Below are positions 1,208 to 32,018 of a stretch of 32,018 nucleotides of DNA, piece by piece. The DNA is from Planctomycetota bacterium (GTDB taxonomy: Bacteria; Planctomycetota; SZUA-567), in assembly GCA_036745875.1 (NCBI GenBank), contig DAIOFH010000035.1:1-32018 (forward strand), read 5' to 3'. The translations under genes were made by a program, and so were the position numbers. How positions within the stretch are numbered: position 1 is the stretch's first letter; every line of letters starts with the position of its first letter. The notes beneath the pieces are model-generated. The model was not told the DNA's origin, did no database searches, and saw only the letters and a list, made by a program, of their open reading frames with translations.

Positions 1208-3904
1208 CTAAAATTGGACATCCTTCAAATCGGCATCGGTGATGGGCGCTTCGATCATCGAATCAGAAAGATAATACACATCGGGATAACGACCTTCGGC
1301 CAACTGATCGACAATAGGCGTATACAACGGCGGCGGACGGTCCATGCCCATAAAACTCTTCGGCGAAAGGGTAAAATAAACGCCTCGGTCATCGGCATTG
1401 CGCTTTTGCACATAGCTCACCGAAAGTTCAAAGGTATCAAGGTCCCGGAATATCGAGACTCGATATTGATTGAAACCATGACGGACACCGGTCTGGTTAT
1501 TTCTCCACTCATTCGAATCCCGCCATTCGTAGCCAACCGCCGCTTCGATGGCGTAGTGGCTTGAGTCATTCCATAATTTGGTTCTGACAGCAAAGAAAGT
1601 CTGGTCGGACTGATCGGAATACGGGTAACGCCAGTATCTTCCGCGATAATGATAATGATTGGCGGTAATGCGGAAGAGATTCCCCAGCCGCCAGTCCGAA
1701 GTTAAAATGGCCCGGTTCACCGTATTATCGTGAGTATCATAATCGATACTTGCGCCCAATGTCAAACGAGGCAGTGGGCGATACGTCACTTCGAAATTAA
1801 TCTCAGTGAACTTTCTGTCGTAGTTGATTTTGGCCTGGTCTTGCCTACGCGGATAATAATAGAATCTCATACTGAAATCAAGGATATCACGCGTGGGAAT
1901 AACAGACCCGGATGCGTTTTCATAATAGCGGCGCTGTAGTTTATTTTGGAGTTCAAAACCCAAACGACGCTGACGATAATAAACGTCATATTCGTCCATG
2001 GGATAAATATTACGGTCATAATCCAATTCGGGCTTGGAATTTTCGAGATAACTAACGATTGGCTCGGTGATGAGACGCCATTGATCGTGGGCACCAAACA
2101 CAGTGTAGAATCGGGTGGACAAATCGGCGCCGAAGGGAACGGCATAATTGGTATCACTCCCGCCTCGCCTCGATAGCTGCCCGGAAGTGAAAACATTAGC
2201 CCTGCGGGCCACAAGATCTGCTGGCAGTAACTCGCCGTCAGGAAGAGGCGTTCCAAGAGTCTTGCTATAATATGTTGTTCGCAATCCGACCCATGGCTTG
2301 AAAGTGAGTGCGTTTGCCACGCGAAGAGGCGCTTCGAGGATAGCTTCATTATGCGCGCGGAAAAATGCACCGAAATGGTTCTTGTCCCAGAGACGGCTTT
2401 GTGAAAGACCCCATTCATCAAGTCCCCATATGCCGCCAGCACTCTCGCGCATGTATTTTACCGCATCTTCGTCAAAGTACTTGTCAACAACACCGACCCG
2501 CATGTCATCCTTGAAGAATAACGGCAGGTTGCCAATTTGCAGTGACGGAACAGTTAAGCGTATTTCAGGATAGTACGCGGTTTGCGTCTGCCACTTGTTG
2601 GATAAACGGGATTGGGCGACAAATTCGAGCTCCCAATGCTTGTCGAGTCGACGGACATCAACAAAATTCTGTGGTTCTTTTTCGTTCCAATATTTACTGG
2701 AATCATATTCCTTGAGATAATCGCGGTCATGGTATAACTTAGCTTCGGCACGGACATCCCATAGTTCGTTAAGTTGCTGGTAGTGTTCCCATTCAACGGC
2801 CCAGCGGAAATCCTTCCGGTACAGTGAGGGGGTCCAGTTCTGATTCCACGAATAAATACGGTCTTCATTATCCCCGATGGCACGGTCATAATCTTGGTCT
2901 TTGGAGATGGCGTGCTCATACACACCGTAAAGCTTGAGCTTGCCCTTCGAATCCCACTGACCCATATTATATCCAAACTCAACGCCTACACCGGTCCCGC
3001 GCTCGGTGAAATAGTCAAGGTCGAAAATAACTTTATCCATGCGGAAATAACGATTGGGATTGTCGTTCCTCAGCTTCCATCCCCACTGCGTCCTGGCAAA
3101 ATAACCAAGGTCACTGGTATGCCCCGCCGAGAAGCGCATCCAGGGCCAGTCGTACTGCAGGTCACGAATCAGGTAGGGAAAGTACAGAACCGGCATGTTA
3201 CCTACCCTGACCGTATTGTGGTATGACTCAATCTTTTCATTGCGCCGCAGAAGTGCTGCTGGCGAGTTGAAATACCATTTGGGCCTGGCAAATGAATCAG
3301 GGGTAATCTTCGCATCAATCAATTCAAATGTTTCTGAATCATGAGCGCGTAGCTCCTGGGCATGAACAAACATACGCCTGATAGGCCCGGCATCCTGCGT
3401 GCTGCTGAGACTTTGCGCCCTGGTCATATCGAGTGACGGCGCTTCATCAAGGAAGTCTTTCACCGGCAGCCGAACATTCTTGTTATCCATCTTCAATCGA
3501 ACGTTCTTGGCAAGGCCCTTCCATTCCTGGTAGTTGAAGGATAACTGATCGCAGTAAAACGCATTGCCATTGGGATCGTCGAAAACGACGTCCCCTTCGG
3601 CATAAATTTCCTGGAGCTCTACGTTCAGGACCATATTACGCGCGGAAACGGTGACTTGCGGCAGGACGATGACGGCATAGTTTCTGAGAATGGCGATGCG
3701 ATGGCCCTGTTCGTCTTCTTCCCAGTCCAGCATTCCGCCGCGGAAGTCGATGCCTTCACCAAGAAGACCTGCCATGCCGCCGGCACCGGAACCTGCTTCG
3801 CCGGAATACGCGGATCCGGCGACTATCCCGAAGGAGATTGCCGGAAATAGCAAGAAGAATAAATGTAGCACCACGCTACTTCTTTTTTGCCTGCGCGACG
3901 GCAT
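1208..3904 (-). CDS. lptD: LPS-assembly outer membrane protein LptD (OstA family), approx. 898 aa
   Basis: N-terminal signal peptide (MPSRRQKRSSVVLHLFFLLFPAISFGIVAGSA), OstA-like beta-jellyroll segment, and a very long aromatic-rich beta-barrel region ending in a C-terminal F. Start chosen at the ATG before the signal peptide. Confidence 0.6.
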   Translation of the reverse strand: MPSRRQKRSSVVLHLFFLLFPAISFGIVAGSAYSGEAGSGAGGMAGLLGEGIDFRGGMLDWEEDEQGHRIAILRNYAVIVLPQVTVSARNMVLNVELQEIYAEGDVVFDDPNGNAFYCDQLSFNYQEWKGLAKNVRLKMDNKNVRLPVKDFLDEAPSLDMTRAQSLSSTQDAGPIRRMFVHAQELRAHDSETFELIDAKITPDSFARPKWYFNSPAALLRRNEKIESYHNTVRVGNMPVLYFPYLIRDLQYDWPWMRFSAGHTSDLGYFARTQWGWKLRNDNPNRYFRMDKVIFDLDYFTERGTGVGVEFGYNMGQWDSKGKLKLYGVYEHAISKDQDYDRAIGDNEDRIYSWNQNWTPSLYRKDFRWAVEWEHYQQLNELWDVRAEAKLYHDRDYLKEYDSSKYWNEKEPQNFVDVRRLDKHWELEFVAQSRLSNKWQTQTAYYPEIRLTVPSLQIGNLPLFFKDDMRVGVVDKYFDEDAVKYMRESAGGIWGLDEWGLSQSRLWDKNHFGAFFRAHNEAILEAPLRVANALTFKPWVGLRTTYYSKTLGTPLPDGELLPADLVARRANVFTSGQLSRRGGSDTNYAVPFGADLSTRFYTVFGAHDQWRLITEPIVSYLENSKPELDYDRNIYPMDEYDVYYRQRRLGFELQNKLQRRYYENASGSVIPTRDILDFSMRFYYYPRRQDQAKINYDRKFTEINFEVTYRPLPRLTLGASIDYDTHDNTVNRAILTSDWRLGNLFRITANHYHYRGRYWRYPYSDQSDQTFFAVRTKLWNDSSHYAIEAAVGYEWRDSNEWRNNQTGVRHGFNQYRVSIFRDLDTFELSVSYVQKRNADDRGVYFTLSPKSFMGMDRPPPLYTPIVDQLAEGRYPDVYYLSDSMIEAPITDADLKDVQF

Positions 3905-4085
3905 AGCTAGAACGTTCTCCCCGCATGGTGAAAGAATAAAGTGAAAAACAATCAGTAATAGTGGCAATTACCCATAATTATCGAAACAGGCGAGGCAAAG
4001 TCAAGCGTCGATACGACAAACGAACGAAACCTTCCGGTACAGGTTGCGCCAGCCAAAACAATACTTTTCCATCGCGAATAAAACC

Positions 4086-10082: not shown

Positions 10083-10754
10083 ATGAACGCTGCAAACAAG
10101 AGTTTCGACTTCAACATTCTGGGCGAAAGTTATCCAATCCCCCGGATAGAAACGGAAAGCCAAACCAAGGAAAACATCCTGGTAAATGCAACACTGCTTT
10201 TTGCCAAAAAAGGATATGCTGCGGTATCAATGCGCGAGATTGCCGATGCCACCGGTATTAAGCCCGCCTCTCTCTATAATCACTTTACCAACAAGGAAAT
10301 ACTGTGGCAAAATGTCCTCTGGCATGCGAAAGAACTGTATCTCCTTTATTTTGCGCATCTTGACGAAACGCTCGCTTCGGCGGAAACATTCGAGGAAGTA
10401 CTGGAGGTGATCTTCACGGAACCGAAACGCATGGCCAATGTCTTTACCTGCTATGCCTTCAGCATGACCCAGGCAGAGCAGTTCAGGGACAGGGCCGCGG
10501 GCGATTTTTTCACCTCCGTCTGTCTCGAATACAGCATTGATTTTTTGCAGTCATGGCTGGAGAAGTGCATCGCCAAGGGCCTTGTTAAACCATTTGACGC
10601 CAAAGCCGTGGCAGGAATCATCATGCACAGCGTCCTGATCGGGTTGAGCGTAAAAGTGCAGGAATGCATGGGGCGTAATGCACCTTATGACTACAACCTC
10701 ATGTTCTCGCAGCTGCAGGCTTTCATCCTGAACGCGGTGAAAAAGAACCGCTGA
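10083..10754 (+). CDS. TetR/AcrR family transcriptional regulator
   Basis: N-terminal HTH (TLLFAKKGYAAVSMREIADATGIKPASLYNHFTNKE) and a helical ligand-binding domain; 223 aa. Confidence 0.85.
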   Translation: MNAANKSFDFNILGESYPIPRIETESQTKENILVNATLLFAKKGYAAVSMREIADATGIKPASLYNHFTNKEILWQNVLWHAKELYLLYFAHLDETLASAETFEEVLEVIFTEPKRMANVFTCYAFSMTQAEQFRDRAAGDFFTSVCLEYSIDFLQSWLEKCIAKGLVKPFDAKAVAGIIMHSVLIGLSVKVQECMGRNAPYDYNLMFSQLQAFILNAVKKNR

Positions 10755-22818: not shown

Positions 22819-24837
22819 TCATCCTTTATCGCGGCAGGTCACGGTGTATACGGAGTAGTCGTCCGTCTGGTGGTCGAATTTGACCGGCAGGAACGACTCG
22901 ATGACCTGCATGTTGGTTTTACTGTGTTCCGTCAGGGGAAGGGTGGAAAACTCCCCGCCACCCGCCAGGGCGAGCGGCAACAATATCTGGTCGGCGGAAT
23001 GCTTGCCCAGGACGGCCGTCGACGCGGCATACAGCCTTGCGGCGCTTCCGGCGGCGTCAGCCACTTTTTCAGCCCTGAGCGCCTTTTCGCCAAAGGCGGT
23101 GAATACTTCGCTGTGGTCGCCTTTCTCGTCCCGCGCGTCCACCATGACGACATTGCCGGGACCGGCGGACTCGACCTGCAGGACGCGGCATTGGCTGTCC
23201 GACAGGCCGAGGCGACGGCGCAGGGCCTCCGCCTCCCGCTTGGCGACGGATTCCGGCAGCCCGCTGTAGACGCAACAGCCGCTCAATTTCACTTCTCCGC
23301 CGCGTTTCAGCAAAGACAACGGCGACAATTTCCCGCCCTGCACGCGGACTTTTACCTTGCCGCCCCCGGCGGGAAAAAAGCCGTGACGCGCAAGGGCAAC
23401 ATCCACTGCCGCCCCCATGCGCCGCAGCAGCGGCAAAAAGGTGCGTTCGAGGAAATCGTAGGGCGGAGCGAGCGGGTTGTGGGTGCCGCCTTCCAGGGTC
23501 AGGTTCGACTCCCCATCCGCAGACAGCAAGACAGGCAGGACGGTTTGCAAAACCAAAGTCGCGGACCCGGCCGTGCCGATGGCGAACGAATAGTTGCCGT
23601 GCCGGATACGTCCGGGTTTGAACTCGATTTCCGTCGAACCGGGGAAGTCGCCGTCGACCCGGGCGCCGCATATTTCCTCCGCCGCCTTGACAGCGGTCAT
23701 ATGCTGCCGCATAAGTCCCGGCTTGCGCCGCCTGGCTCGGATTTTATCGATGTGCAGCGCAGTTCCCGTGATCATCGACAGGGAAAGGGAGGTGCGCAAC
23801 ACCTGCCCTCCCCCTTCGCCAAGCGATCCATCTATATAAACCATCGGATACTCCTCCCGCCTGGTGATGGTCGCCGCCTCGGAAGCCTTCTTCGCTTCGA
23901 CCACTTTGTTCATGATCGCCTTGATGTCGCCGGGGAGTATTATGTCCCTGACGCCGAAGGAGGTGACCGAATACCCGTACTGCACGGCCTTGGCGCGAAG
24001 CTCCCGTTCCAGATCTCCGGCCAGGGAGTCCTTGTCCGAAAGCAGGCTGTCGAGTTCGACGCCGCCGACCTTTGCCCGCAGCAACAGTTGCGCTTCGCGG
24101 TACAGTGCCTGCTTCGCGTCCACCGATTCGTCCAGGCTTTTCATGACGTCGACGACCCTGCAGGTCAACGAAACGTTCAGCCTCAGCGCCAGCTTGTCGG
24201 CGGTCAACATGTCCTGCCCGCCGATGTCCAGGGTAATTTCCCGCATATCGACGACGCTGGACTGGTTGCCGTCGACAGCCTTCCAATAGACGTATTTCCC
24301 CGGTTCGAGCAAGCCGACGAATTCGCCGTTGTGGTAATACGACGCCTTGCTGCCGGGTCGGACCAGGACGACGAGAAAATGCGCAGCAAACGCCGGGTTC
24401 ATCATGATGCTGTCCAGGTCGGCGTGGACGAATCGGCCATGCTCGTCCCGGATGTCGTATACTTCATAGCGGATATCGACAAGCCCTTTCCACCAGGCCC
24501 AGCGTCCCGGCTCAAGGATACCGCAAAAGACGCCGTCCCGCCAGACCAGCGCCCGCTGATTGGAGTCAAGATCGAGGAGCGCCACTTCCTCTTCGGGCAA
24601 AAGACCGGACTTGACCATGGCGGGAAGCTGTTCGTGCCTGAACCACGGGTCGAGGCGGGAGAAGACCTCCATGGTATACTCCCCCATGGGGTCGAAAATC
24701 CATTTCTCGTCCTTTTCAAGCAGGCCCTGGAATTTGCCGTTTCTCCACAACAGGCCGCGCTGATAATCACGGACGCGAAATTTCCTGAGTCCGGCGAAAT
24801 AGGTGGCAACGTCGCCGATGAATTTGAGGGTGCCCAT
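22819..24837 (-). CDS. rtcA: SPFH/band-7 domain :: RNA 3'-terminal phosphate cyclase RtcA fusion protein (672 aa)
   Basis: The C-terminal 341 aa align along their length to RtcA (YIDGSLGEGGGQVLRTSLSLSMITG, RQHMTAVKAAEEICGA, LVLQTVLPVLL, DQILLPLALAGGGEF, LTEHSKTN). The N-terminal 331 aa form an SPFH domain (VVDMREITLDIGGQDMLTADKLALRLNVSLTCRVVD...GYSVTSFGVRDIILPGDIKAIMNK). A single ORF with no stop between them. ATG at 24835-24837 with AGGAGA SD; the ORF-track M1 is a TTG. Confidence 0.8.
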   Translation of the reverse strand: MGTLKFIGDVATYFAGLRKFRVRDYQRGLLWRNGKFQGLLEKDEKWIFDPMGEYTMEVFSRLDPWFRHEQLPAMVKSGLLPEEEVALLDLDSNQRALVWRDGVFCGILEPGRWAWWKGLVDIRYEVYDIRDEHGRFVHADLDSIMMNPAFAAHFLVVLVRPGSKASYYHNGEFVGLLEPGKYVYWKAVDGNQSSVVDMREITLDIGGQDMLTADKLALRLNVSLTCRVVDVMKSLDESVDAKQALYREAQLLLRAKVGGVELDSLLSDKDSLAGDLERELRAKAVQYGYSVTSFGVRDIILPGDIKAIMNKVVEAKKASEAATITRREEYPMVYIDGSLGEGGGQVLRTSLSLSMITGTALHIDKIRARRRKPGLMRQHMTAVKAAEEICGARVDGDFPGSTEIEFKPGRIRHGNYSFAIGTAGSATLVLQTVLPVLLSADGESNLTLEGGTHNPLAPPYDFLERTFLPLLRRMGAAVDVALARHGFFPAGGGKVKVRVQGGKLSPLSLLKRGGEVKLSGCCVYSGLPESVAKREAEALRRRLGLSDSQCRVLQVESAGPGNVVMVDARDEKGDHSEVFTAFGEKALRAEKVADAAGSAARLYAASTAVLGKHSADQILLPLALAGGGEFSTLPLTEHSKTNMQVIESFLPVKFDHQTDDYSVYTVTCRDKG

Positions 24838-25163: not shown

Positions 25164-25236
25164 CCCAAGGAGTGGGAGTTGAACCCACGACCCGCTGATC
25201 CATAGTCAGCTGCTCTACCCACTGAGCTATCCGAGA
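25164..25236 (-). ncRNA. tRNA-like element 1: canonical D, anticodon-like and T arms; weakened acceptor stem; loop CUAUGGA; no CCA
   Basis: Minus-strand read UCUCGGA-UA-GCUC-AGUGGGUA-GAGC-A-GCUGA-CUAUGGA-UCAGC-GGGUC-GUGGG-UUCAACU-CCCAC-UCCUUGG-G. The acceptor pairs only 5 of 7 positions (internal UU/CU mismatch). The would-be anticodon AUG is not a natural bacterial anticodon. Confidence 0.5.
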
Positions 25237-25308
25237 TGGTGGACAATACGGGAGTCGAACCCGCCGGGAGTCGTCTCGGACCCGCCGCCATACCGTCATG
25301 GATTGCCC
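25237..25308 (-). ncRNA. tRNA-like element 2: perfect acceptor stem, T arm and encoded CCA, but a non-canonical core
   Basis: Minus-strand read GGGCAAU-CCAU-GACGGU-AUGG-CGGC-GGGUC-CGAGAC-GACUC-CCG-GCGGG-UUCGACU-CCCGU-AUUGUCC-A-CCA. The D-like stem starts at position 8 and the would-be anticodon loop is 6 nt. Abuts element 1 head to tail. Confidence 0.5.
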
Positions 25309-25414
25309 CGCTCGGCCCGATTCTTTTCAGAACCCGTTCCCCGGTACAGGCCCGACCGATCTTTTGGGAGAGGCGGGAATGCCGGCGGAAGAATCGAACA
25401 CGCTTTTGGTAAAA

Positions 25415-27320: not shown

Positions 27321-27396
27321 GCGGGCGTAGCTCAGTGGCTAGAGCACCACCTTGCCAAGGTGGGGGTCGAGGGTTCGAATCTCTTCGCCCGCTCCA
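27321..27396 (+). tRNA. tRNA-Gly (anticodon GCC)
   Basis: GCGGGCG-TA-GCTC-AGTGGCTA-GAGC-A-CCACC-TTGCCAA-GGTGG-GGGTC-GAGGG-TTCGAAT-CTCTT-CGCCCGC-T-CCA; a canonical cloverleaf with CCA encoded. Confidence 0.9.
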
Positions 27397-27404
27397 ATAT
27401 TAGA

Positions 27405-27447
27405 CAACCCCTTATGCCATATGGCGTAAGGGGTTGTTTGTTTATGC
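27405..27447 (+). terminator. Rho-independent terminator after tRNA-Gly
   Basis: 16-bp stem acaaccccttatgcca / tggcgtaaggggttgt (one mismatch), 2-nt loop, then ttgtttatg. Confidence 0.7.
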
Positions 27448-27524
27448 ACTGATCCATACCCGGATAAAGCACGATACTATAACAAGAGCATTCGCAGCCG
27501 AAGAAAAATCCCGCATTGTCCCGG

Positions 27525-28598
27525 TCAGTCATCCAGGCTTTTTGCTTCCAGATACTCCGACAGCAAGTCAGCTATTTGGATATTGTTGAGATCGGAGAAT
27601 GGAAAATGCGTATTGCCGGTAATGCCGATTTCCGGCAGGTGCACGACAGTCGCATCGCCGCCGTACCGGTTGACGGTGTCGGCGAAATCCCTCGCCAACT
27701 GCAATTCGGCGCGCCATTGATCCATGCCGTAATGCTCGGTCGGTTCGGTGGCGATGTTGTCGCCGTAATAAATCACGATGGGAATGGAGGCGAGCTTCTT
27801 GAAATCCTCCAGCGGTATCCCTCTGCCTGCCCTTGGACCAAAGGATGTGTCGATGGGCTCGGGAACTTCGCCCTCGGGAAAAACAAAAGGGCTTCCGCCC
27901 GGCTCGTAGGCGACAATGGCACGTACCTTGTCGCTGCGTATCGCAGTCAACCATCCCGGCGACCCGCCCTGCGAATGCGTCACCAGTATGCCGGGGCCAA
28001 TCCGGTCGAAAAAGGCGACCATGGCATCGGCAACCACGGTAAAATCCAATGGCCCCGTGTTTGGCGTTATCTGGCGGAAGTATTGGTCAAGACTTGCGGA
28101 ATCCTGCGGGAACTGAACGCCGGGGAAAAAATCCGGGTAATTGCCCAAACGGAAAAGCATGTGATAGGTAATGTTCACAAAACTCGGTTGCAGGTCAATT
28201 GCCAGGGACGATTGTCCCGCCTTGGCGCGCCGCGGCTGGTCCACCAGGTAGACTCCGAACCGCCGGCGCAGGAAAATATTCTGGAAGCCTTCGCGGCCGT
28301 CGGGAGTGCTTTCCCACGTTTTTGAGGACTGGAATCCTCCATGAAGAAAAACGAGCGGCAGCTTTCTCGCGTTGACCGGTATTTGGTACGAGACATAGGC
28401 GTGGTCGGCATAGGTGGACTGTCCGTCCGGCCTGCGGAAATTGCCGGGATCGTACTCCCCCGGAGCGGTCACCACAATCCCGCCGGCGGTGAAACTCCCC
28501 TGTTCCTGCACCATGAGCGGCGGTTGTTGCGCCTCCCCGGCGATAGCCAGCACCGGAAGCACACAGGCAAGCAGAGCGGGTAAAACAAAACGAATCAT
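27525..28598 (-). CDS. Secreted alpha/beta-hydrolase fold protein
   Basis: Signal peptide MIRFVLPALLACVLPVLAIAG and the nucleophile elbow VTHSQGGSPG (GxSxG). Start at ATG 28596-28598, preceded by AAGGAGG. Confidence 0.7.
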   Translation of the reverse strand: MIRFVLPALLACVLPVLAIAGEAQQPPLMVQEQGSFTAGGIVVTAPGEYDPGNFRRPDGQSTYADHAYVSYQIPVNARKLPLVFLHGGFQSSKTWESTPDGREGFQNIFLRRRFGVYLVDQPRRAKAGQSSLAIDLQPSFVNITYHMLFRLGNYPDFFPGVQFPQDSASLDQYFRQITPNTGPLDFTVVADAMVAFFDRIGPGILVTHSQGGSPGWLTAIRSDKVRAIVAYEPGGSPFVFPEGEVPEPIDTSFGPRAGRGIPLEDFKKLASIPIVIYYGDNIATEPTEHYGMDQWRAELQLARDFADTVNRYGGDATVVHLPEIGITGNTHFPFSDLNNIQIADLLSEYLEAKSLDD

Positions 28599-28620
28599 GT
28601 ATTCCTCCTTGTATAGGTTG

Positions 28621-29103
28621 CTACGAATCCATACCAATGGCGCGTAACCACTCCGTTACCTGCCGTGCGAGCCTGCCGCCTCCGTTGCCGGAGACGACAA
28701 GTCCTGTCTTGCAGTCGGCTCCGCTGCAAAGCTCCGCTATGTCCCTCTCCATCCGGCCTTCGCCGCCGCCGCCATGGGTGCAAAACGGTATGACCGTCTT
28801 GCCGGCCCAATCGCATCCGGCAAGAAGCGTCGCAACCGGCGGAGCCATGGTATGCCACCAGATCGGCGAGCCGACGAATACAGTGTCATAGGATTCGATT
28901 CCCTCGGGTGTTCCTTTCAGGTGCGGCCTGAATCCCGCCTGGATTTCCTTCTTTGCCTGCTCGACGACGGCATTGTACGATGTCGGATAGGGCGAGACCG
29001 GTTCCACCTCGAAAAGATCGCCCTGGGTTTTCTCCCGGATGCATTCGGCGATTATCCTGGTGTTTCCGGAATGGGAATAATAGACGATAAGGATATTGCT
29101 CAT
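28621..29103 (-). CDS. Flavodoxin
   Basis: 160 aa; the N-terminal FMN phosphate loop MSNILIVYYSHSGNT and a flavodoxin-like fold; no signal peptide. Confidence 0.75.
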   Translation of the reverse strand: MSNILIVYYSHSGNTRIIAECIREKTQGDLFEVEPVSPYPTSYNAVVEQAKKEIQAGFRPHLKGTPEGIESYDTVFVGSPIWWHTMAPPVATLLAGCDWAGKTVIPFCTHGGGGEGRMERDIAELCSGADCKTGLVVSGNGGGRLARQVTEWLRAIGMDS

Positions 29104-29129
29104 TTTTGTCTCCTTTGCTGCAATGCTGT

Positions 29130-29792
29130 TTATATGGTTTTCCCAAGCTGGTACGCCTGCTCGGGAAATGGTGTGCGCTCTATTGCTCCGGCTGGCCAGA
29201 CTCCGGGGGCAACGACTTTACCCGAATCGGCCCAGCCCAAATAGCGCAGCAAAACTTCGTAATGCGAAAGCATCGGCATGGCCTCGCTGGCGGCCGTGTT
29301 GGCGTAGGTCATCATCAATACAGCCCGCTTCCCGCCATGCAGCCGCGAGCTGACGGAATAAAAGCGGTCGATTACCGCCTTCAACTGGGACGATACACCG
29401 AAGTAGTACATTGGCGTGGCGAAGGCAACCACGTCAGCGTCGAGGAGGGACGGGCGAATCGAAAGAAAATCGTCTTCCAAGACGCAATCCCCGTTCATCC
29501 CGCAAGCATTGCAGGCCGTGCAGGGATTGACGTTCTTGGAGGCCGAATCGAAGCGCGTCACTTCATGCCCCGCCTCTTCTGCGCCCTGGATAAATCGACC
29601 GGCAAGCGTGTTCGAATTGCCGTTTTTTCTCGGGCTCCCCGTCAAGACCAGCACCTTCATGCTTTTTCTCCTCTCCGTTCCCTGTGCAGGGCCGGCTGGC
29701 AACAATTCGGCGGCCGACGTTTTCCGGACATAAGCCGAACCTCCCAATACGGTCGCGGCCAATGCGGTTTTCAGAAAATCCCTTCGGTTCAT
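29130..29792 (-). CDS. Iron-sulfur flavoprotein (Isf)-like NAD(P)H-dependent FMN reductase with an N-terminal twin-arginine (Tat) signal
   Basis: Tat motif MNRRDFLKTALAATVLGGSAYV, then MKVLVLTGSPRKNGNSNTL (flavodoxin-like fold), and the compact Cys cluster CTACNACGMNGDC typical of Isf [4Fe-4S] sites. A second strong SD (GGAGAGGAGA) precedes the internal Met45. Confidence 0.65.
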   Translation of the reverse strand: MNRRDFLKTALAATVLGGSAYVRKTSAAELLPAGPAQGTERRKSMKVLVLTGSPRKNGNSNTLAGRFIQGAEEAGHEVTRFDSASKNVNPCTACNACGMNGDCVLEDDFLSIRPSLLDADVVAFATPMYYFGVSSQLKAVIDRFYSVSSRLHGGKRAVLMMTYANTAASEAMPMLSHYEVLLRYLGWADSGKVVAPGVWPAGAIERTPFPEQAYQLGKTI

Positions 29793-29826
29793 GTCAATAT
29801 CCTTTCCGTCCGCATTTTGGCAACGC

Positions 29827-30270
29827 CTATTGCTTCACCTCGACGTGCACGGAAAATTCACCCTGCATCGAGGCAAGCTTCTCCACACCGGATTCGATGG
29901 CGCCGAGGGGGATGAGCCCGCTGCCGTACCGGAAATCGCGGTAGAATACCGCCAAATTCCCCCATGGCGCATAGTAGGTGAAATCGCCAGCGGACGGGGT
30001 GCAGCCGGGCGGCGAGCCATCGACGGAAAGGCGTTGGGGCAAGTCGCTTATCTTCTCGGTCGCGTTGTAATCACGAAAGGCCAGGGTCATGGGAAGCATG
30101 GCGATAAAATCCCGGCTCGCCGGTGAATCGTTAAGGCGGACAGTCAGTTCTTCGCCGTCGAATTTCAGGAGAATGGCTGTGCTCATATCGTCATTTCCTT
30201 TTGCCCTTTCACCGGCGGCGGCAAACAACGTCGCCAGCAAGGCAGTCATAATTACGGTCAGTATACGCAT
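29827..30270 (-). CDS. Secreted cyclophilin-like fold protein (uncharacterised)
   Basis: Signal peptide MRILTVIMTALLATLFAAAG. The body (LTVRLNDSPASRDFIAMLP...FTYYAPWGNLAVFY) resembles the cyclophilin-like family. Start trimmed from the longer basic-rich ORF. Confidence 0.45.
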   Translation of the reverse strand: MRILTVIMTALLATLFAAAGERAKGNDDMSTAILLKFDGEELTVRLNDSPASRDFIAMLPMTLAFRDYNATEKISDLPQRLSVDGSPPGCTPSAGDFTYYAPWGNLAVFYRDFRYGSGLIPLGAIESGVEKLASMQGEFSVHVEVKQ

Positions 30271-30344
30271 ATATTTTTCCCGCCGATGCAAAAGCACTTT
30301 AAAGGTAAGTCGTTCACAGGCTTTCTCAAAACTGCCATATAGGG

Positions 30345-30815
30345 TTATTTGTTGTATTGCTCGTCGGTGACGGCTTCCAGCCAGTCGACGTTTTTGCCGT
30401 CGAGTTCTCCAGTGACGGTGAGATGGGTCATGGCGACGTTCGACGCCGCGCCGTGCCAGTGCTTGACGCCTTTGGGACAAGTAACGACGTCTCCGGCCCG
30501 GATCTCCTCGACCTTGCCGTCCCAGGTGCCCGTTCTGCCGACGCCGGAGATGACGAATATCTGTTGCCCGGCGGGATGGGTGTGCCAGTTTGACCGCGCG
30601 CCCGGCTCGAACGTCACCATGCCTGCGCCGGCGGAAATGCCGTCTATGGACGTAAAGACGGGTTCTATGCGGACATTGCCGGTAAAAATGTCGGCGGGAC
30701 CTTTTCTCGCATCCCTCTCTCCCGCGCGGGTGATTTTCTGTTCCTCACCGGAAAAACCAATAGTGGAGCAACAAAGAACCAGACTCCCGAAAACAAGTGC
30801 GTTAAGAATTTTCAT
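30345..30815 (-). CDS. Secreted cupin-domain protein
   Basis: Signal peptide MKILNALVFGSLVLCCSTIGFSG. Cupin motifs NWHTHPAGQQIFVISG and GDVVTCPKGVKHWHGA. Confidence 0.7.
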   Translation of the reverse strand: MKILNALVFGSLVLCCSTIGFSGEEQKITRAGERDARKGPADIFTGNVRIEPVFTSIDGISAGAGMVTFEPGARSNWHTHPAGQQIFVISGVGRTGTWDGKVEEIRAGDVVTCPKGVKHWHGAASNVAMTHLTVTGELDGKNVDWLEAVTDEQYNK

Positions 30816-30840
30816 TATTTTTCCTTTTCAGAAACGACTT

Positions 30841-31959
30841 CTATTTTAATTTGGAGTATTCCGCATCGCCAACCGGCTCCAGCCATTCCGTGGAAGCGCC
30901 TTCTGCAGGGACACTCACCGCAAGGTGCACAAACCAGGAGTCCTTGGCCGCGCCATGCCAGTGTTTCACGCCCGCAGGGATATTGACCACGTCGCCGGCA
31001 TGCAGTTCCTGAGCGGGCTTGCCTTCTTCCTGGTACCAGCCGCGGCCGCCGGTGACGAGCAGGATCTGCCCGCCCTTGTGATGTATGTGCCAATTGTTGC
31101 GGCATCCGGGTTCGAAGGTCACGTTGCCGATGGGCGCGCCGGTAGTGGTCAGCATGTTTAGATAGCTTGTCCCGGTGAAGTATTGGGCATACTCGCTGTT
31201 TTCCTCCCCAACCGGGAAAATCACGCCATCGGCAATTTCGCTGTTGTTTGCGCCCAGGAATGAATCAAGCTCCGCCCGTGCGCCATTGCCGACCGATCCG
31301 CCGACCTTGTCGCCAAGGATTGCCGTGATTTTTTTCAGCTGGGCGGGGGTAATGCCGATGTTCATGCTGATGTTGAAGTGGCTGCGCAGTTGCGACTCGA
31401 CCCCGGCAATGCTGGCGAGGGCGGAGACAGTCGCGATTTCCCTGCTTTGCCAGTCAAGATTGTCGCGCCCGAAGATGTCGCCGAAAAGATGGGCTTTCAG
31501 AAATTGGTCGACGGCGGGGGCGAAATCCATCAAACCGCCCCGCACCGGAGCGCCGGCAAGGGCGGTCTGGTTTTCCGTCCCCAACTCCAGCGCTGTTTTG
31601 CCGTCACGGGGAAATGGGCCGGCAGCTTTGCCCACCGCGTCGTTGATGCCTTTCTGCCGCCTGGCTTCAAGCGTTTCCGAAAAAGCGCCCAGGGCGTTCA
31701 GGCAGCGGGGAAAGCCGGCATACGCGTACAACTGGACAAGGATTTCCTTGATTTCGTTGATGGTCAAGCCTGCGTCGAGCCCCTCGCCCAGGGCTTGTTT
31801 GAGTCCCCGCATGTCGCCGCTGGCGGTAAATGAGGCTATGGGGACAATGGCTTGCTGTTTGGCGTTCAATGGTCCGGTATCCATGGCGAATCCTTCCGAA
31901 AAAATGCTGGATAATAGGCAAATGATGCTGCAGAGGAAATACGTCGTCGGTCTTCTCAT
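30841..31959 (-). CDS. Secreted carboxymuconolactone-decarboxylase (AhpD-like) family protein fused to a C-terminal cupin domain
   Basis: Signal peptide MRRPTTYFLCSIICLLSSIFSEGFA. Two CMD-like helical repeats (e.g. IKEILVQLYAYAGFPRCLNALG), then the cupin motif NNWHIHHKGGQILLVTGG...GDVVNIPAGVKHWHGA, which is paralogous to the neighbouring cupin. Confidence 0.65.
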   Translation of the reverse strand: MRRPTTYFLCSIICLLSSIFSEGFAMDTGPLNAKQQAIVPIASFTASGDMRGLKQALGEGLDAGLTINEIKEILVQLYAYAGFPRCLNALGAFSETLEARRQKGINDAVGKAAGPFPRDGKTALELGTENQTALAGAPVRGGLMDFAPAVDQFLKAHLFGDIFGRDNLDWQSREIATVSALASIAGVESQLRSHFNISMNIGITPAQLKKITAILGDKVGGSVGNGARAELDSFLGANNSEIADGVIFPVGEENSEYAQYFTGTSYLNMLTTTGAPIGNVTFEPGCRNNWHIHHKGGQILLVTGGRGWYQEEGKPAQELHAGDVVNIPAGVKHWHGAAKDSWFVHLAVSVPAEGASTEWLEPVGDAEYSKLK

Positions 31960-32018
31960 ATGGTCCTGTCTTATTTCGCTTCCTGAGTCATTGTAAAAAT
32001 AAGGTAGTCCAGGCAGTC

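Follow-up and report, generated by a model that had tools for sequence, protein, structure and literature searches.

What could six co-oriented genes, most of them encoding predicted exported enzymes, do together next to a tRNA-Gly gene in a member of the Planctomycetota? We investigated this question in a 32,018-nt stretch of contig DAIOFH010000035.1 (assembly GCA_036745875.1), hereafter the window, whose coordinates are 1-based. All six open reading frames (ORFs) run in the same direction on the minus strand at 27525–31959, opposite in strand and 3′ to the tRNA-Gly gene, as the initial annotation had described. With modest confidence, we favour the reading that they belong to an operon induced by a LysR-type transcriptional regulator (LTTR), which would supply the periplasm with enzymes processing a xenobiotic or electrophilic small molecule, among them an Isf-like flavoprotein exported by the twin-arginine translocation (Tat) route. 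Gene content, protein families, signals, the operator and co-occurrence across genomes were observed, and from these we infer localisation, cofactors, electron path, substrate class and induction.

The six genes are cistrons 2–7 of a seven-gene operon. The gaps between the six ORFs measure 22–74 nt, and a Shine–Dalgarno (SD) sequence precedes each chosen ATG (in the last gene, AAGGAGG lies 5 nt upstream of ATG 28598). A seventh gene ends 11 nt before the first of the six; its last 15 codons and stop codon (…DCLDYLIFTMTQEAK, then stop) occupy 31971–32018 on the minus strand, with the rest beyond the window end. At the other end, tRNA-Gly(GCC) (27321–27396, plus strand) is convergent with the cluster, and RNAfold of 27397–27524 (both strands, about −41 kcal/mol) places an 18-bp stem-loop at ~27401–27440, between tRNA-Gly and the last gene, which is a probable bidirectional terminator and operon 3′ end. 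The gaps of 11–74 nt, the SD at each start and the terminal hairpin support this anatomy. Transcription would start from an LTTR promoter ~250–300 bp past the window end, where a divergent LysR gene adjoins it, and would pass in order through a small cysteine-containing protein; a fusion of two carboxymuconolactone decarboxylase (CMD) domains and a cupin (CMD-cupin; 372 aa, predicted exported; 30841–31959, minus strand; PF02627 twice, PF07883); a single-domain cupin of the GtHNL family (156 aa, predicted exported; 30345–30815, minus; PF07883, NF049940); a Cyclophil_like2 protein (CypL2; 147 aa, predicted exported; 29827–30270, minus; PF18050, 3.8e-36); a Tat-signal Isf-like protein predicted to carry flavin mononucleotide (FMN) and a [4Fe-4S] cluster (220-aa precursor; 29130–29792, minus; PF03358, TIGR01409); a Flavodoxin_4 protein (160 aa; 28621–29103, minus; PF12682, 2e-27); and an alpha/beta hydrolase of the SulE/esterase-713 family (ABH; 357 aa from ATG 28598; 27525–28598, minus; PF12697). 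It would terminate at the hairpin shared with tRNA-Gly.

The suggestion that the cluster may run past 32,018 was confirmed by sequence from ENA ERZ27241893:k141_2267384 (locus L083; a JGI contig carries the same locus), in which the rest of the seventh gene, the LysR gene and the promoter/operator follow past the window end. The operon's first gene (L083 16356–16585, minus strand; ~76 aa) starts at a GTG preceded by AAGGAGG. Its product, with conserved NLKDAGC and DCLDYL motifs and no signal, is predicted to be cytoplasmic, and it may be a thiol-based sensor or co-regulator. It matched no Pfam or NCBIfam family; a single-sequence AF2 model (pLDDT 66) shows three helices, for which Foldseek returned no meaningful match (best E 2.5). 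Past the divergent LysR-family gene (L083 16738–17631, plus strand; PF00126 and PF03466), the contig continues with an arginase-family gene, one for a membrane LuxR-type regulator and a 193-aa ORF before it ends.

Between the LysR gene and the operon, ~250 bp past the window end, lies the 14-mer AAGTATTTGYTATT (L083 16646–16659), which overlaps a −35-like TTGCTA. A dyad of the form ATGC-N7-GCAT (T-N11-A) is located 18–20 nt upstream of it, so spelled that ATGAAATGC-N7-GCATATCAT is followed by AAGTATTTGCTATT, which contains TTGCTA. Classical LTTR operators pair a recognition site near −65 with an activation site at −35. The bipartite element has this layout, and binding of the LysR protein to it is predicted. 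The 14-mer has 33 exact matches in 27 of 90 loci, against 0.017 expected by chance, and the dyad accompanies 28 of the 31 non-redundant copies. Operator-bearing loci include the window's Planctomycetota contig, Victivallales and Gastranaerophilales. What follows a copy is the small ORF, a signal-bearing CMD-cupin, an exported hydrolase, DUF3737, an acetyltransferase or an exported esterase-ABM fusion. No copy of the 14-mer occurs in the window, even with 2 mismatches allowed, and an Rfam search of the cluster and its leader detected no regulatory RNA. The small proteins form a family of ~70–80 aa with invariant NLKDAGC and (I/V)DCLD(Y/F)L, nearly always encoded by the first gene after the LTTR operator.

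How widely is this arrangement shared? A scan with the Isf-like alignment, at one genome per species, confirmed 541 relatives, and our locus counts cover the best 80 of these (55–67% identical), with neighbours taken from within ±8 kb of the 80 Isf-like genes. Their hosts comprise Victivallales/Lentisphaeria, Gastranaerophilales, gut Alphaproteobacteria, Mailhella, Bilophila, Desulfovibrio, Kiritimatiellia and Riflebacteria, and many of the record titles give a gut, rumen or faecal source. CMD-cupin was the most frequent neighbour of the window's types (44 of the 80 loci), followed by Flavodoxin_4 (41), window-type LysR (24), the small ORF (19), CypL2 (8) and window-type ABH (4). Unbiased ORF clustering over 81 loci (the 80 and the source contig) added an aldo/keto reductase (42 loci) and CMD proteins (50 loci), together with Tat-signal DUF6282, DUF362 and MBL-fold proteins, further exported hydrolases and MerR regulators. 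Across phyla, regulator and operator thus travel together with a set of enzymes that varies and is mostly exported, and the operon appears to be one version of a mosaic regulon shared horizontally among host-associated anaerobic diderms.

Export was judged from profile models, simple physico-chemical criteria and conservation in homologs rather than from SignalP or TatP. By the simple criteria, four products have Sec-type signals (ABH, CypL2, the single cupin and CMD-cupin), one has a Tat-type signal (the Isf-like protein) and Flavodoxin_4 has none. Each Sec-type signal combines a positive n-region, an uncharged h-region of 18–21 residues with a hydrophobicity of 2.6–2.9, and small residues at −3/−1. 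The signals read MIRFVLPALLACVLPVLAIA before GE in ABH, MRILTVIMTALLATLFAAA before GE in CypL2 and MRRPTTYFLCSIICLLSSIFSEGFA before MD in CMD-cupin, and that of the single cupin ends in GFS before GE. Sec, lipoprotein or Tat signals are likewise present in the homologs of these four products (Sec in CMD-cupin homologs, Sec or lipoprotein in CypL2 homologs) and in most of the Flavodoxin_4 homologs. With predicted signals on five of the six products and on their homologs, the description of the cluster as encoding mostly exported proteins held.

The signal peptide of the Isf-like protein spans residues 1–27 (MNRRDFLKTALAATVLGGSAYVRKTSA before AE; 29712–29792, minus strand). Residues 2–8 are N-R-R-D-F-L-K, matching the twin-arginine consensus (S/T)RRxFLK, and the h-region reaches a maximal Kyte–Doolittle value of 1.57 over 10 residues, compared with 2.6–2.9 in the Sec signals of the neighbours. 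A basic c-region (R23/K24) then leads to TSA before AE, an AxA-type site by the simple criteria. TIGR01409 scored 20.6 (cutoff 16.7), and the Pfam TAT_signal model PF10518 scored 22.1, just under its cutoff of 22.7. Across 17 aligned homologs (58–83% identity), neither M-x-RR-x-F-[LI]-[KR] nor any of the four cysteines varies, and RRxF[LI] is found in 118 of the 120 best protein clusters and in 78 of the 80 loci; the two clusters without it are truncated gene calls. The initial annotation's view of the twin-arginine signal as genuine is upheld by this conservation, and the simple criteria do not reject it. We therefore treat the Isf-like protein as a predicted Tat substrate with a predicted periplasmic location. 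Because LptD is encoded in the window, the host has an outer membrane and a periplasm.

The window's Flavodoxin_4 protein carries no signal, and its ORF could not be extended upstream. Most Flavodoxin_4 homologs of the module have Sec/lipoprotein-type N-termini, such as …FGACGCSAEN (L014, L019, L020, L023, L034, L064, L069, L081 and others), which would imply that an FMN protein is exported unfolded and binds its flavin outside the cytoplasm. Flavodoxin_4 homologs in two Desulfovibrionaceae loci (L037, L059) have Tat-like signals.

Could the Tat signal be an annotation artefact, the real product being a 176-aa cytoplasmic protein and the cluster a set of ordinary cytoplasmic enzymes? JGI and Logan do call a 176-aa product, which begins at ATG 29658–29660 (Met45), where the mature domain starts, and NCBI, JGI and ENA call a 347-aa CMD-cupin from ATG 31882–31884. 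A strong internal SD precedes both ATGs; that of the Isf-like gene (GGAGAGGAG, 29668–29676) forms with its ATG an element at the signal/mature junction (29658–29676, minus strand). However, the N-terminal extension, with its RR motif, h-region and basic c-region, is kept as protein in the 118 clusters and 78 loci mentioned above, and signals are likewise conserved in CMD-cupin homologs. Because untranslated DNA would not retain such features, we regard an artefact as extremely unlikely. Since the N-terminal signals are conserved in homologs, the 176-aa and 347-aa records are N-terminal truncations.

What kind of enzyme is the Tat substrate? The Isf-like protein matches FMN_red (PF03358, 2.6e-22) and PF02525 (4.6e-17). 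Its motif C91-x2-C94-x2-C97-x5-C103 (CX2CX2CX5C; 29484–29522, minus strand), the presumed [4Fe-4S] ligands, is invariant in 17 of 17 aligned sequences and occurs in 120 of 120 clusters and 77 of 80 loci; the motif that defines Isf is CX2CX2CX5-7C (PMC3164229). The best solved relative by sequence is the N-terminal domain of FLR, including its Cys-rich loop (7d38, E 3e-12). An AF2 model (mean pLDDT 70.5, with low confidence only in the signal and the Cys loop) matched quinone reductases, azoreductases and FLR in Foldseek at E about 1e-8. The FMN_red fold and these nearest solved relatives point to a reductase. No Isf chain was found by sequence or profile searches of the PDB, nor an Isf-specific hidden Markov model match, and an Isf probe sequence likewise found no Isf chain in the PDB, its best match again being FLR. 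Isf-likeness here denotes fold and Cys motif.

With the Isf of Methanosarcina thermophila the protein shares a flavodoxin-like FMN_red fold, a compact CX2CX2CX5-7C motif after the second strand and a catalytic domain of ~175 aa. It differs in having a conserved 27-residue Tat signal and a linker, with a predicted periplasmic location, and in sitting in an LTTR regulon of exported enzymes; its cofactors and activity are predicted only. FLR, the flavone reductase of Flavonifractor plautii (PDB 7D38; PMC7862272), is a gut enzyme that reduces dietary compounds with FMN and forms a dimer with FMN at the interface. Unlike the window protein, FLR is cytoplasmic, has 310 aa and forms its substrate pocket from C-terminal subdomains, which the window protein lacks.

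An exhaustive search with the mature domain, over family representatives at 50% identity, returned 9,953 representatives at E ≤ 1e-3, of which 130 reached E ≤ 1e-30. The nearest ones (35–53% identical) are mostly ~178 aa long, start at the flavodoxin strand and have no signal but keep the Cys motif; a few bear a Tat signal (P0376, P0377, P0383, P0405, P0419). By these sequence comparisons, the Tat-routed Isf-like protein is a distinct minority lineage within a mainly cytoplasmic family. The Tat-bearing lineage is widespread in gut and rumen diderm anaerobes. Calling a Tat-routed Isf unusual is thus apt relative to the characterised Isf and the family majority, but not in the sense of rare, given how widespread the lineage itself is. 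In databases it is hidden behind labels such as "flavodoxin family protein" or "WrbA", often truncated to the signal-less form, and we found no paper on Tat-exported Isf or FMN reductases in the literature searched.

Where could such a reductase obtain its electrons? The closest relatives (L086–L090; Isf-like proteins 83–85% identical) encode a polyferredoxin of 452–465 aa directly upstream of the Tat-Isf gene. This NapH-NapG-like fusion (L087 5149–6546; L086 2511–3869) consists, in order, of a membrane domain with two CX3CP motifs (NapH/MauN-like), ferredoxin motifs, a hydrophobic segment beginning SRRKFILAG (internal and twin-arginine-like; SRRKFILAGSMAALGAVVVG) and a NapG/NapF-like ferredoxin domain. 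Seven of the 80 other loci (L005, L006, L027, L053, L064, L069, L081) also encode it, and it is absent from the window. As in the window, a 160-aa signal-less Flavodoxin_4 follows the Tat-Isf gene in these relatives, the L086/L087 orthologs being 75–77% identical to that of the window. The fusion resembles NapGH, the quinol dehydrogenase of the Nap system that supplies periplasmic reductases, in its NapH-like membrane domain and NapG/NapF-like ferredoxin part; it keeps a twin-arginine segment and adjoins the Tat-Isf gene. However, all scores are below equivalog cutoffs, both parts form one polypeptide, and the partner is a flavoprotein, not a molybdoenzyme. By analogy, the fusion could carry electrons from quinol to the periplasmic Fe–S flavoprotein in these relatives, which suggests an electron route to the periplasm. 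In general, the Isf-like reductase would take electrons through its Fe–S cluster from a membrane or periplasmic Fe–S donor.

The internal starts are conserved in their own right, in statistics that draw on loci related to each other and assume SD use by these phyla: the junction ATG of the Isf-like gene is kept in 76 of 77 loci, with an SD-like 4-mer at −17 to −4 in 60 of the 77 (78%), compared by the same measure with 54% ahead of the long start and 8% at the remaining codon positions of these genes. Synonymous resampling of the seven upstream codons gave an SD in 27.8 ± 4.6%, and none of 2000 simulations reached the observed value; the linker residues vary while the SD persists. Of 19 CMD-cupin homologs, 18 keep the junction ATG; an SD accompanies it in 16 of 18, against 45 ± 11% expected (0 of 2000). 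CypL2 of the window also has an SD-like sequence before Met29.

Such starts possibly give exported and cytoplasmic isoforms from one gene, possibly give signal-less subunits that hitchhike with signal-bearing ones, or are possibly retained ancestral starts without function. The precedent for Tat hitchhiker co-export is E. coli PaoABC (PMC4273604). There, too, a cofactor-bearing Tat substrate is encoded beside a signal-less flavoprotein partner (here Flavodoxin_4), and the conserved internal start could yield signal-less Isf-like subunits; the difference is that a complex of the window proteins is purely hypothetical. The signal-less Flavodoxin_4 might hitchhike likewise. A bolder proposal, which we put forward tentatively, is that of a new cross-phylum LysR regulon with a near-invariant bipartite operator, which would give gut and rumen anaerobes a periplasmic, quinol/Fe–S-driven flavoprotein reductase system, and in which the Tat-Isf-like and CMD-cupin genes each yield two products and the short form either stays in the cytoplasm (two-compartment detoxification) or rides out as a hitchhiker. 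Through the internal starts, dual localisation by alternative initiation becomes testable in a bacterial system.

The families of the other enzymes bear on the substrate. Against the PDB, ABH matches 4q34 (E 1e-107), SulE-type chains 8goy/7y0l (E 2e-63) and esterase 713, 1qlw (E 3e-37). SulE is a herbicide-detoxifying esterase that acts on xenobiotic esters (PMC10356948). SulE-type chains align with ABH from residue 27 to the C-terminus, esterase 713 with its N-terminal part (residues 26–237). SulE and esterase 713 (7Y0L, 1QLW) are secreted carboxylesterases, and ABH likewise has an N-terminal signal; the nearest structure, 4q34, is itself uncharacterised, and the likeness of ABH rests on overall alignment. 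The solved relatives of Flavodoxin_4 are structural-genomics proteins only (PDB 3klb/4ici/4j8p); HmuF/FldH, considered as a relative, was dropped since it is not among the PDB matches. For CypL2, a sequence search of the PDB found no solved relative.

The single cupin scored 168.2 bits with the NCBIfam (R)-mandelonitrile lyase model NF049940 (equivalog cutoff 140), whereas the fused cupin of CMD-cupin, at 120.2 bits, fell below it. Over its full length the single cupin aligns with GtHNL (PDB 4bif, E 3e-42), including WHTHPAGQ and KHWHGA. These cover HxHx3Q … H, the metal-ligand motif of the GtHNL structure; the fused cupin has Gly at the position aligned with its Gln. GtHNL is the Mn-dependent cupin hydroxynitrile lyase of Granulicella tundricola (PDB 4BIF), with which the single cupin shares WHTHPxGQ and KHWHGA. 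It differs from the window cupin, whose Sec signal would make folding and metal acquisition periplasmic. GtHNL itself is not known to have a clear physiological role. Given the Sec signal and the operon context, the name "(R)-mandelonitrile lyase" is probably an over-annotation for the exported cupin. The two cupin domains had been proposed to be paralogous; they are 44% identical (E 1e-27) and have VKHWHGA in common, in agreement with that proposal.

CMD-cupin matches PF02627 over two stretches (1.5e-17) as well as PF07883, and its PDB matches are 2f4p, 4g9q and 2af7. It has just four cysteines: C10 and C14, spaced as CxxxC within the signal peptide, and one each in GFPRCLN and EPGCRNN. A CMD domain is present, but the sequence contains no CxxC, the catalytic motif of AhpD-like alkylhydroperoxidases, so that the "AhpD-like" label first given to it is not supported. 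Could the operon then be a catabolic route that acquires nutrients from an aromatic compound or lactone, by analogy with PcaC/PcaD of the β-ketoadipate route, with the cupin cleaving or isomerising a ring, CMD as decarboxylase and the hydrolase as lactonase or esterase? The CMD domains weakly match PcaC and PcaDC/PcaCD fusions, and the LysR protein weakly matches PcaQ, CatM and BenM. An alpha/beta hydrolase beside a CMD protein mirrors PcaD/PcaC, and LTTRs commonly control aromatic catabolism. However, the scores are far under equivalog cutoffs (48.2 bits against 155.7 for 4-carboxymuconolactone decarboxylase PcaC, TIGR02425), the enzymes are exported with no transporter in the operon, downstream CoA-transferase or thiolase genes are lacking, and the cargo varies strongly between genomes. 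We regard this route as quite unlikely.

The CMD superfamily includes AhpD, and the hosts are anaerobes, both of which are compatible with periplasmic defence against oxidative stress. The exported Isf-like protein would then reduce O2 or H2O2, as is reported of the methanogen Isf, CMD would act on peroxides, the metal cupins on superoxide or related species, and the LysR protein would be an oxidant sensor. The Isf-type Cys motif and fold fit such a role, and Entamoeba Isf genes have been linked to the response to oxidative and nitrosative stress (PMC3164229). On the other hand, CMD-cupin has no AhpD-type CxxC, and an OxyR-like identity for the regulator was rejected at 79 bits against the OxyR cutoff of 329. 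In addition, the cargo consists mostly of esterases, aldo/keto reductase, acetyltransferase and DUF3737, not of peroxidases, superoxide dismutase or rubrerythrin, and the hydrolase has no obvious role in defence against reactive oxygen species. We consider this explanation improbable, if somewhat less so than the catabolic one.

We thus return to the processing of a xenobiotic or electrophilic compound, a flavour that comes from the relation of ABH to SulE and from regulon cargo elsewhere (DUF3737, acetyltransferase, esterase-ABM fusion, aldo/keto reductase). In this scheme, the periplasm would receive an ester hydrolase, two cupins, a CMD module and an FMN/[4Fe-4S] reductase, the last folded and loaded with its cofactors in the cytoplasm before export by Tat. 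Together, upon induction, they would transform or detoxify a small molecule of dietary or host origin while it is still outside the cytoplasm, with an esterified aromatic, a quinone or another electrophile as substrate candidates.

Several points weigh against this scheme. Flavodoxin_4, having no signal, may act on the cytoplasmic side, and the conserved internal starts mean that part of the Isf-like and CMD-cupin protein could stay in the cytoplasm. NAD(P)H is not expected in the periplasm, and the window cluster encodes no electron donor. No tat genes were found in the ~38 kb examined of the 113.8-kb contig. Lastly, no paper on this module or gene combination was found in the literature searched.

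If the scheme is correct, gut and rumen anaerobes of several phyla (Planctomycetota, Lentisphaerota, Desulfobacterota, Alphaproteobacteria, Melainabacteria) share a mobile, LysR-switched kit acting on small molecules outside the cytoplasm. Its core would be a Tat-exported Fe–S flavoprotein, a type of periplasmic reductase of which we found no description in the literature searched. The conserved operator provides a handle for finding the inducer, and the kit could be relevant to how microbes metabolise dietary polyphenols, quinones, esters or drugs.

How did the module reach this host? Named CysS matches from 79% down to 60% identity are all from Planctomycetota, with a drop to ~52% outside the phylum, and RtcR agrees, whereas the regulator, operator and enzymes of the module have their closest counterparts in other phyla (nearest named relatives: Victivallales, Desulfovibrionaceae and others). 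Because host and module relatives differ in this way, horizontal acquisition is likely, although not via a tRNA-targeting integrase. The position next to tRNA-Gly had hinted at a genomic island integrated there by a site-specific recombinase. The cluster does adjoin the tRNA gene, its module relatives and its host belong to different phyla, and its GC content at third codon positions (GC3) is 0.67–0.71, compared with 0.77–0.80 in the adjacent rtc, cysS and matE genes. However, this shift is mild, several core genes in the window having equally low GC3. No integrase or recombinase was found between tRNA-Gly and the contig end (~10 kb), and the 3′ 25-mer of tRNA-Gly has no second copy in L083 at up to 3 mismatches. 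Moreover, the cluster is convergent with the tRNA gene and parted from it only by the terminator. Integration of this kind is therefore very unlikely, and the hint of a tRNA-linked island in the initial annotation was not borne out. Nor is the block conserved core synteny in the nearest relatives (CysS 79% and 74%, RtcR 73%), which share no local synteny and are too rearranged for a site-by-site comparison.

Some other features of the window deserve mention. The LptD-like gene (1208–3967, minus strand; GC 0.49, GC3 0.54) and a TetR gene (10083–10754, plus strand; GC 0.49, GC3 0.62) are markedly below the rest of the window (GC3 0.68–0.80). RtcA, an RNA 3′-phosphate cyclase, is fused to an N-terminal Band_7/SPFH domain (672 aa; 22819–24837, minus strand), whereas L084, the nearest relative, encodes Band_7 and RTC in two genes side by side. 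Between rtcR and rtcA (25164–25341, minus strand), ARAGORN calls a "tRNA-His" with the non-standard anticodon ATG (Rfam tRNA, 53 bits), whose acceptor stem has two non-canonical pairs. Directly 5′ of it lies a second tRNA-like 3′ end (GGGTTCGACTCCCG…CCACCA) with a weak match to a tmRNA end (15.5 bits). The junction of the two elements is spanned by a YrlA match that is also weak (18.9 bits, far under the cutoff). Both are downstream of a sigma54-like TGGCA…TTG promoter on the rtcBA strand. The pair may be a tRNA-like or Y-RNA-like leader of an RtcR-controlled RNA-repair operon rather than a decoding tRNA.

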